A stretch of 64,000 nucleotides of DNA, taken from assembly GCF_044324875.1 (NCBI RefSeq), contig NZ_CP172185.1; one strand, 5' to 3'. Position 1 is the first letter of the stretch, and the number at the start of each line of letters is the position of its first letter. A program made the translations under genes and the position numbers. The notes beneath the pieces are model-generated. The model did no database searches. It was given only the letters and a program-made list of their open reading frames with translations, and was not told the origin of the DNA. This DNA is from Escherichia coli. GTDB taxonomy: Bacteria > Pseudomonadota > Gammaproteobacteria > Enterobacterales > Enterobacteriaceae. Below are positions 22,190 through 46,035 of this stretch, piece after piece.

Positions 22190-22272
22190 AAAAAAACCTG
22201 CTGGTGAGGCAGGTTCTTTTATTTACTATTTTCAGGCCCAACACCGCAGCCTGTGCAACATCGTGTTCCAAC
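22190..22272 (-). ncRNA. Predicted OrzO/OrzP-like antitoxin sRNA, copy 1 (about 80 nt)
   Basis: Minus-strand promoter TTGCAA-17-TATAAT (22307-22279), intrinsic terminator (hairpin 22197-22213, T-run on minus strand); 5' ~19 nt complementary to 22419-22438 in the toxin 5' UTR. Confidence 0.5.
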
Positions 22273-22278
22273 GAACGA

Positions 22279-22329
22279 ATTATAACCATCGGTGGACCCC
22301 GTTGCAATTAAGATAATGAGATTTATAAT
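22279..22329. promoter_or_regulatory. Back-to-back divergent sigma-70 promoters sharing one palindromic -35 hexamer TTGCAA (copy 1)
   Basis: Plus: TTGCAA(22302-22307)-16-TATAAT(22324-22329); minus: same hexamer, 17-nt spacer, TATAAT (revcomp of 22279-22284). Confidence 0.5.
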
Positions 22330-22510
22330 CCAGACGGTTGGGACGTTGCGCCGGATCGGACCAATTTTAAGTCCTGGCTACCGGACGGGTGGTGCTGCAG
22401 GTGGTGCCCTGATCCGGAGTGCAACATCGTGGTCCAACATACGTAAACCAGTATCGACAGGCAGTGTAAGGGTAAGGTGCTGGTGTTGCGCTCCTTAATA
22501 AGGAGAGCGA

Positions 22511-22600
22511 ATGGACACGCTGACACAAAAGTTAACCGTGCTCATTGCTGTACTGGAGCTATTAGTGGCTCTGTTACGGTTGATTGATTTGTTGAAGTAA
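22511..22600 (+). CDS. Type I toxin-like small hydrophobic protein, 29 aa (ZorO/ZorP-like), copy 1
   Basis: MDTLTQKLTVLIAVLELLVALLRLIDLLK; SD AAGGAG 6 nt upstream, sequestered in a cgctcctt/aaggagcg hairpin; the only two nucleotide differences versus copy 2 are synonymous. Confidence 0.65.
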   Translation: MDTLTQKLTVLIAVLELLVALLRLIDLLK

Positions 22601-22799
22601 CGGGCAAATTGAAACGCATCTAAGGGGGAAAACCGCTTCCCCCTTTAATAAAATGATTACTGTTTTTATTAATTCATCATATAACTCATTTTTATTTATA
22701 AATTCATCGATTTTATATTCAACGTACCGTTTAACCGGGATGTGAATATTTATGGTGGGCTATTGGCAAAAAATATCTGGAAAGTAGATCGCAGAAAAT

Positions 22800-22880
22800 A
22801 AAAAAACCTGCTGGTGAGGCAGGTTCTTTTATTTACTACTTTGATGTTAAGTTACTGATAGTGCAACATGGCATCTCAAC
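22800..22880 (-). ncRNA. Predicted OrzO/OrzP-like antitoxin sRNA, copy 2
   Basis: Same promoter/terminator layout as copy 1; 5' region complementary to 23027-23046. Confidence 0.5.
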
Positions 22881-22886
22881 GAACGA

Positions 22887-22937
22887 ATTATAACCACCTC
22901 TGGACAGTGTTGCAATTAAGATAATGAGATTTATAAT
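22887..22937. promoter_or_regulatory. Back-to-back divergent promoters sharing TTGCAA (copy 2)
   Basis: TTGCAA at 22910-22915, TATAAT at 22932-22937 (plus) and revcomp of 22887-22892 (minus). Confidence 0.5.
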
Positions 22938-23118
22938 CCTGACTGTTGGGAAGTTGCGCCGGATCGAACCCATTTCAAGTCCTGGCTACCGGACGGGTGG
23001 TGCCGCAGGTAGTGCTCTGATCCGGAGTGCAACATGGCGACTCAACATACGTAAACCAGTATCGACAGGCAGCGTAAGGGTAAGGTGCTGGTGTTGCGCT
23101 CCTTAATAAGGAGAGCGG

Positions 23119-23208
23119 ATGGACACGCTGACACAAAAGTTAACCGTGCTCATTGCCGTACTGGAGTTATTAGTGGCTCTGTTACGGTTGATTGATTTGT
23201 TGAAGTAA
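23119..23208 (+). CDS. Type I toxin-like small hydrophobic protein, 29 aa (ZorO/ZorP-like), copy 2
   Basis: Identical peptide to copy 1 with two synonymous changes (gct/gcc, cta/tta); same sequestered SD. Confidence 0.65.
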   Translation: MDTLTQKLTVLIAVLELLVALLRLIDLLK

Positions 23209-45904: not shown

Positions 45905-46035
45905 CCAAACGACTCGGGGTGCCCTTCTGCGTGAAGGCTGAGAAATACCCGTATCACCTGATCTGGATAATGCCAGCGTAGGGAAGTCACGGACCACCAG
46001 GTCATTGCTTCTTCACGTTATGGCAGGAGCAAACT
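45905..46035 (+). promoter_or_regulatory. TPP (thi-box) riboswitch in the thiM leader
   Basis: Sequence ...ggggtgcccttctgcgtgaaggctgagaaatacccgtatcacctgatctggataatgccagcgtagggaa... is the canonical thiM aptamer; the SD/AUG follow. Confidence 0.9.

Follow-up and report, generated by a model that had tools for sequence, protein, structure and literature searches.

The locus analysed here, in a window of 64 kb (the whole stretch of DNA that was examined), is the known zor-orz tandem type I toxin-antitoxin array of Escherichia coli in its P + Q version. We estimate a probability of roughly 0.88 that its two antitoxins are copy-specific, i.e. that OrzP silences P targets only and OrzQ silences Q targets only, which would keep the tandem copies insulated. 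Each unit consists of a gene for a 29-aa membrane toxin with a 174-nt 5' UTR, and a divergent sRNA of ~82 nt whose first 20 nt are complementary to positions +83..+102 of the UTR. By homology with zorO-orzO, pairing in the window units would block ribosome loading, and RNase III-dependent decay would follow. The two units differ in the centre of the seed (+5 to +11, with V1 at +9..+11), and the target changes in parallel; hence OrzP and OrzQ would each silence their own target type only. A preliminary description of this DNA had already suggested copy-specific antitoxins. The suggestion is correct and well reasoned, and its principle is already known, having been shown experimentally at zor-orz in 2013-14 (PMC3919570).

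The identification as zor-orz is based on matches of both minus-strand sRNAs to the OrzO-P family of Rfam (RF02083) above the gathering threshold of 60 bits, on a peptide identical to ZorO, on the position between yehL and yehK, and on the conserved promoters. In the annotation of homologous loci, this position is the same as in E. coli O157:H7 Sakai, to whose locus that of the window is ~94% identical overall. The units follow each other in the order zorP/orzP and zorQ/orzQ as two direct repeats of ~610 bp, with 89% identity over 495 aligned nt. Both ORFs encode MDTLTQKLTVLIAVLELLVALLRLIDLLK (29 aa), the same peptide that the O-type unit in O157:H7 Sakai specifies (ZorO); an NCBIfam scan of this 29-aa peptide found no family. 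At least part of the locus is present in 5,232 out of 5,426 complete E. coli genomes. The closest known systems are zorO-orzO and zorP-orzP of O157:H7 EDL933 (Fozo et al. 2010; Wen, Won & Fozo 2014, PMC3919570; Wen et al. 2017, PMC5397157), which share the locus, its position, the peptide, the promoters and the RF02083 family, as well as the pairing site, where the 5' end of the sRNA meets +83..+102 in a UTR of 174 nt. Unlike O157:H7, the window contains no O-type unit, and its second unit is of a third specificity type (V1 = GCC). Elsewhere, the window includes a CyaR/RyeE sRNA (62965-63050, minus strand, 100.7 bits) and a TPP riboswitch (45905-46001, plus strand, 71.2 bits), both ordinary features of E. 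coli. The features of the array are as follows.

22190..22272, minus strand: orzP-type sRNA gene, 83 nt, V1 at +9..+11 = ACG; RF02083, 101.3 bits over 22190-22265
22195-22215: orzP terminator hairpin
22253..22272, minus strand: OrzP seed +1..+20, 5'-GUUGGAACACGAUGUUGCAC; exact match, 19/20 pairs with 22419-22438
22253-22272: copy-1 sRNA box, GTGCAACATCGTGTTCCAAC
22279..22307, minus strand: orzP promoter, -10 TATAAT at 22279-22284 and -35 TTGCAA at 22302-22307, 17-nt spacer (promoter scan, 10/12)
22302..22329, plus strand: zorP promoter, -35 TTGCAA, 16-nt spacer, -10 TATAAT (promoter scan)
22337..22510, plus strand: zorP 5' UTR, 174 nt, from the inferred TSS
22419..22438, plus strand: OrzP target box in the zorP 5' UTR (+83..+102; 73-92 nt upstream of the ATG), copy-1 target box, GTGCAACATCGTGGTCCAAC
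22511..22600, plus strand: zorP toxin ORF, 29 aa
22622..22645, plus strand: G+C-rich hairpin after the first toxin ORF, a palindromic arm from the repeat finder
22800..22880, minus strand: orzQ-type sRNA gene, 81 nt, V1 = GCC; RF02083, 91.7 bits over 22800-22873
22861..22880, minus strand: OrzQ seed +1..+20, 5'-GUUGAGAUGCCAUGUUGCAC
22861-22880: copy-2 sRNA box, GTGCAACATGGCATCTCAAC
22887..22937: divergent orzQ/zorQ promoters, -10s at 22887-22892 (minus strand) and 22932-22937 (plus strand), shared -35 TTGCAA at 22910-22915
22945..23118, plus strand: zorQ 5' UTR, 174 nt, by homology with copy 1, fold and inferred TSS
23027..23046, plus strand: OrzQ target box in the zorQ 5' UTR (73-92 nt upstream of the ATG), copy-2 target box, GTGCAACATGGCGACTCAAC; 19/20 pairs with the OrzQ seed
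23119..23208, plus strand: zorQ toxin ORF, 29-aa peptide identical to that of the first ORF

The interpretation of the repeated boxes depends on where the sRNAs start. Following the published numbering, in which V1 occupies +9..+11 of the sRNA and reads GAA in OrzO and ACG in OrzP (PMC3919570), we place +1 at 22272 in copy 1 and at 22880 in copy 2, i.e. at the G of GUUGG, because no other start fits this numbering. A TATAAT box lies 6 nt upstream of each assigned start; the 5' end of orzQ follows from homology with copy 1 and from promoter geometry, and, like every TSS given here for this strain, is a deduced position. The zorP TSS at 22337 is derived from the published 174-nt UTR (PMC5397157) and from its location 7 nt after the -10 element. 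The promoter scan found the conserved -35 TTGCAA and -10 TATAAT for both genes of each unit, hexamers which are more than 99% conserved (PMC11264685). The TTGCAA motif (22302-22307 and 22910-22915) is palindromic, and a single -35 element serves both divergent promoters, with spacers of 17 nt on the orz side and 16 nt on the zor side; transcription of toxin and antitoxin may thus compete for one RNA polymerase site. The model RF02083 begins at sRNA position +8, 7 nt inside the box, so that 22266-22272 and 22874-22880 lie outside the match; hence Rfam matches omit the first 7 seed nucleotides, including two specificity positions.

All four 20-mers that had been quoted as a direct repeat occurring twice per unit, once in the sRNA and once in the toxin 5' UTR, are found exactly. 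Their ranges call for small corrections: the first box starts at 22253 rather than at 22254, and where the sRNA ends had been extended to 22278 and 22885, the box itself stands while the last 5-6 nt belong to the promoter spacer between -10 and +1. Far from excluding the repeat, the sRNA 5' end comprises the whole box as +1..+20, of which the first 18 nt are sufficient for repression (PMC3919570). The boxes within a unit lie 166 nt apart on the same strand, and a search tolerating up to 3 mismatches finds the copy-1 box at these two sites only within the 64 kb, against 0.01 expected by chance.

The claim that the copies differ in the core and that both boxes change together is borne out in detail. 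Between the units, each box core contains 5 differences within 7 nt (22262-22268 and 22428-22434); in 4 cases both boxes show the identical substitution, at box positions 10, 12, 15 and 16. A permutation of the differences with uniform placement yielded 987 out of 200,000 for their clustering, which is a weak null, being dominated by a third hypervariable block located in the sRNA body; that the substitutions coincide position by position is the better argument. That third block, between seed and terminator (22229-22252 versus 22839-22860), is the most divergent one, with up to 7 differences per 8 nt, and the body of OrzQ resembles the O body and not the P body. OrzQ (22796-22880, minus strand) also has a weak, sub-threshold Rfam match to ohsC_RNA (33.6 bits versus a gathering threshold of 50), a hint that the Orz and OhsC antitoxins are distantly related.

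RNAduplex predictions agree with the expectation that each sRNA pairs best with its own mRNA, and the comparison of cognate and non-cognate duplexes that had been proposed as a check came out in favour of the cognate ones. OrzP forms 19/20 pairs with zorP (-34.8 kcal/mol), but 16/20 with zorQ (-21.3 kcal/mol); OrzQ forms 19/20 pairs with zorQ (-34.4 kcal/mol), but 17/20 with zorP (-22.6 kcal/mol). The cognate pattern is 6(1)13 in both units, whereas the cross pairs fall into 4 segments, the longest of which comprises 9 pairs. The cognate advantage amounts to ~12-13 kcal/mol for the duplexes and to 8-18 kcal/mol when intramolecular structure is considered (co-fold partition function of the full sRNA and UTR), and the ranking of cognate over cross pairs is unchanged in the latter estimate. 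RNAduplex applied to full-length sRNA and mRNA was rejected: as it disregards intramolecular structure, the duplex artefactually runs into the terminator hairpin of the sRNA; seed-only RNAduplex and co-fold values are used instead.

Each unit was assigned to an allele type by its seed. Copy 1, whose sRNA reads GUUGGAAC-ACG-AUG... and whose seed and box are identical to those of the first Sakai unit, is orzP/zorP as judged by its sequence. The seed of copy 2, with V1 = GCC, belongs to a third type, neither O nor P, and the O type (V1 = GAA, seed GUUGGUACGAAAUGUUGC, 18 continuous pairs) is absent from both window units. A third type, zorQ/orzQ, defined by BLASTn score, has been described beside O and P in multicopy strains, where it often encodes the variant ZorQ A20S (Shore et al. 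2024, PMC11264685). One third-type unit in our collection (L004) encodes the A20S 'ZorQ' variant, whereas copy 2 encodes the unmodified ZorO-type peptide. There is strong reason to equate copy 2 with the published orzQ/zorQ; the assignment goes by type and by the A20S sister unit, not by a direct sequence match.

A variant sRNA, which we call Q' (5'-GUUGGGGCGCCAUGUUGCAU; box ATGCAACATGGCGCCCCAAC), occurs beside an ordinary Q target in ~239 genomes; examples are L036, L037 and L038 (in the latter at 1160-1179), and the E. coli type strain ATCC 11775 carries it. Q' forms 19/20 pairs with zorQ (-32.9 kcal/mol) and 18/20 with zorP (-27.5 kcal/mol), and is thus predicted to be less well insulated from zorP than the Q sRNA of the window (-22.6 kcal/mol). 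The Q target is found in ~1,091 genomes, the Q sRNA box region in ~858, and a Q or Q' sRNA in ~1,097; the apparent existence of Q targets without a Q sRNA (1,091 versus 858 genomes) was discarded, as Q' explains the gap. A single internal mismatch at sRNA +7 (22266/22432 and 22874/23040) is common to the cognate P, Q and Q' duplexes, as A-G, A-A and G-A, respectively; this position is paired in the O type only, and the imperfection is kept across strains and species. Two K-12-like genomes (L011, L012) possess an orphan orzP with intact promoter and seed while the toxin gene is missing; hence K-12 hosts carry the cognate antitoxin of zorP. This orphan has been published as OrzPmg (Shore et al. 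2024, PMC11264685).

Of 34 complete units sampled across finished genomes, metagenomes and other members of Escherichia, 32 have cognate boxes. E. whittamii and two further Escherichia species carry the P and O boxes unchanged. A scan of genome contigs with a degenerate N-terminal pattern, strict in kind and run on contigs whose E. coli representative is without zor, returned 3 non-coli Escherichia loci and no new types. In two non-coli Escherichia, an ERIC-like repeat lies between the zor unit and yehK (L014 ~1840-2060, L015 ~1830-1960), which is absent from the window. Counted over the distinct types, 95% of cells are paired, against 25-41% with the register slid, and two-sided compensatory changes occur at five seed positions (+5, +6, +9, +10 and +11), a covariation based on three or four independent allele types only. 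One-sided variants (an A->G change in the target of L009, and the Q' sRNA) keep pairing via G-U or improve it.

Rare hybrid arrays, in which a unit lies next to a non-cognate sRNA, occur in two finished E. coli genomes: that of JNE23-001 (L033) reads [orzP|Q target]-[orzO|O target]-[orzQ|Q target], that of SL112 (L034) [orzP|P target]-[orzQ|P target]. When the hybrid junction of either was used as a query, its genome stood out alone by its top identity among 5,426 genomes. The metagenome contigs L022 and L031 resemble these hybrids. L031 was set aside as hybrid evidence in favour of the finished genomes, as this short contig, with switch points at identical stretches of 31 and 41 nt, may be an assembly chimera. 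In one further locus (L035), the orzP 5' region is duplicated. Wherever an array is fully visible, none of its target types lacks a cognate sRNA within that array. This rule fits a trans-acting, type-specific control, albeit as weak evidence, because any hybrid that a neighbouring unit generates by conversion obeys it from the outset.

In an alternative reading, the specificity would be only partial: OrzP and OrzQ could each measurably repress the toxin mRNA of the other unit, so that the array would form a partly redundant network instead of insulated pairs. All sRNAs agree in nine seed nucleotides, at +12..+20, and in another 4 at the 5' end, which makes weak cross-binding possible; 13/20 seed positions are shared between OrzP and OrzQ, and the cross pairs retain 16-17 pairs in register, a perfect 9-bp block and energies of -21 to -23 kcal/mol. 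Q' even reaches 18/20 pairs and -27.5 kcal/mol on zorP, and the hybrid units in finished genomes neighbour a non-cognate sRNA. We nevertheless consider such cross-talk improbable. OrzO rescues cells from zorO, while OrzP does not, even when overexpressed (PMC3919570). OrzP on zorO is predicted to be as strong (-20.2 kcal/mol) as the cross pairs of the window, which are therefore placed in the inactive range. Swapping V1 reverses the rescue, and a compensatory V1 mutation in zorO restores repression, so that specificity resides in this variable region (PMC3919570). In the same study, 15 or more continuous pairs, or 17 or more with one internal mismatch, were required for repression, and a discontinuous pairing of 16 nt failed to repress (PMC3919570). 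When this rule is applied to the window, the cognate pairs pass and the cross pairs fail. Moreover, cross-talk is not required by the hybrid arrays, as every one seen retains a cognate sRNA elsewhere. It has been proposed that variation in the pairing region 'may prevent crosstalk' (Shore et al. 2024, PMC11264685); in this publication, the sole one found that mentions orzQ, no specificity experiment on OrzQ is reported, and our literature search found no direct test of the P/Q pair, of OrzQ, or of zorP as a target. The orthogonality of P and Q in the window is thus a prediction.

That the parallel changes merely reflect short-tract gene conversion between the boxes of a unit, or hitch-hiking of linked sites, with no selection for pairing or insulation, is very improbable: the boxes are direct repeats on one strand, 166 nt apart, and mosaic units reveal active recombination and conversion at the zor-orz locus, but both boxes always differ from each other within a unit, these differences (at +7, a mismatch in P, Q and Q'; in O, at positions 2 and 8) are fixed across strains and species where ongoing conversion would erase them, the one-sided natural variants are G-U compatible, and mutagenesis shows that pairing is functionally required (PMC3919570).

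For zorO-orzO, experiments have established that the overexpressed toxin is toxic and that rescue by the sRNA depends on RNase III (PMC3919570). At zorO-orzO, pairing blocks translation and triggers RNase III-dependent decay (PMC3919570, PMC5397157), and the published EAP/standby region comprises +73..+102 (PMC5397157); the target box at +83..+102 coincides with the 3' end of this region. In the MFE fold of the full-length mRNA, the conserved sequences on either side of the target box are paired in cis to the first ~21 nt, and the RBS is sequestered, both in agreement with the published processing model. The 5' ends of the toxin mRNAs (22337-22357 and 22945-22965; GUUGGGAC/AGUUGCGCCGGAUC) resemble the sRNA seed (GUUGG...GUUGC), and the predicted fold leaves the variable core of the target box in an internal loop. 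The toxin mRNA 5' end may accordingly be regarded as a cis mimic of the antitoxin, in line with the delta-28 processing model from the literature. The hairpin at 22622-22645 probably forms the 3' end of the toxin mRNA.

Among type I systems, tisB-istR1 and shoB-ohsC resemble zor-orz in the divergent arrangement of the genes, in the pairing of the sRNA 5' end far upstream of a sequestered RBS, and in a processed mRNA with a standby site (PMC3919570, PMC5397157). In contrast to zor-orz, they are single-copy systems in which no discrimination between paralogues is involved. With regard to such discrimination, the multicopy Ibs-Sib type I systems of E. coli offer another comparison, and Han et al. 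in 2010 reportedly described copy-specific recognition by Sib RNAs. As in zor-orz, several near-identical Ibs-Sib copies per genome are insulated by small differences in the pairing domain. The Sib RNAs are fully overlapping cis-antisense transcripts, whereas the Orz RNAs are divergent and pair via ~20 nt only.

Looking beyond the window, we tentatively hypothesize that P, O and Q are old and discrete specificity classes, which selection for mutual insulation would have preserved in the different Escherichia species; arrays, such as those of JNE23-001 and SL112, would shuffle units while each target type keeps one cognate sRNA in trans, and Q and Q', acting on the same target, would tune the cross-reactivity with zorP. 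We regard this as possible, though rather doubtful. If true, it would extend the published work, the underlying principle being already established. Likewise, cross-rescue data for P/Q and Q' would refine the published pairing rules and not change them. The locus itself is a clear natural example of duplicated RNA-controlled toxin genes that are kept insulated by a few co-varying nucleotides.
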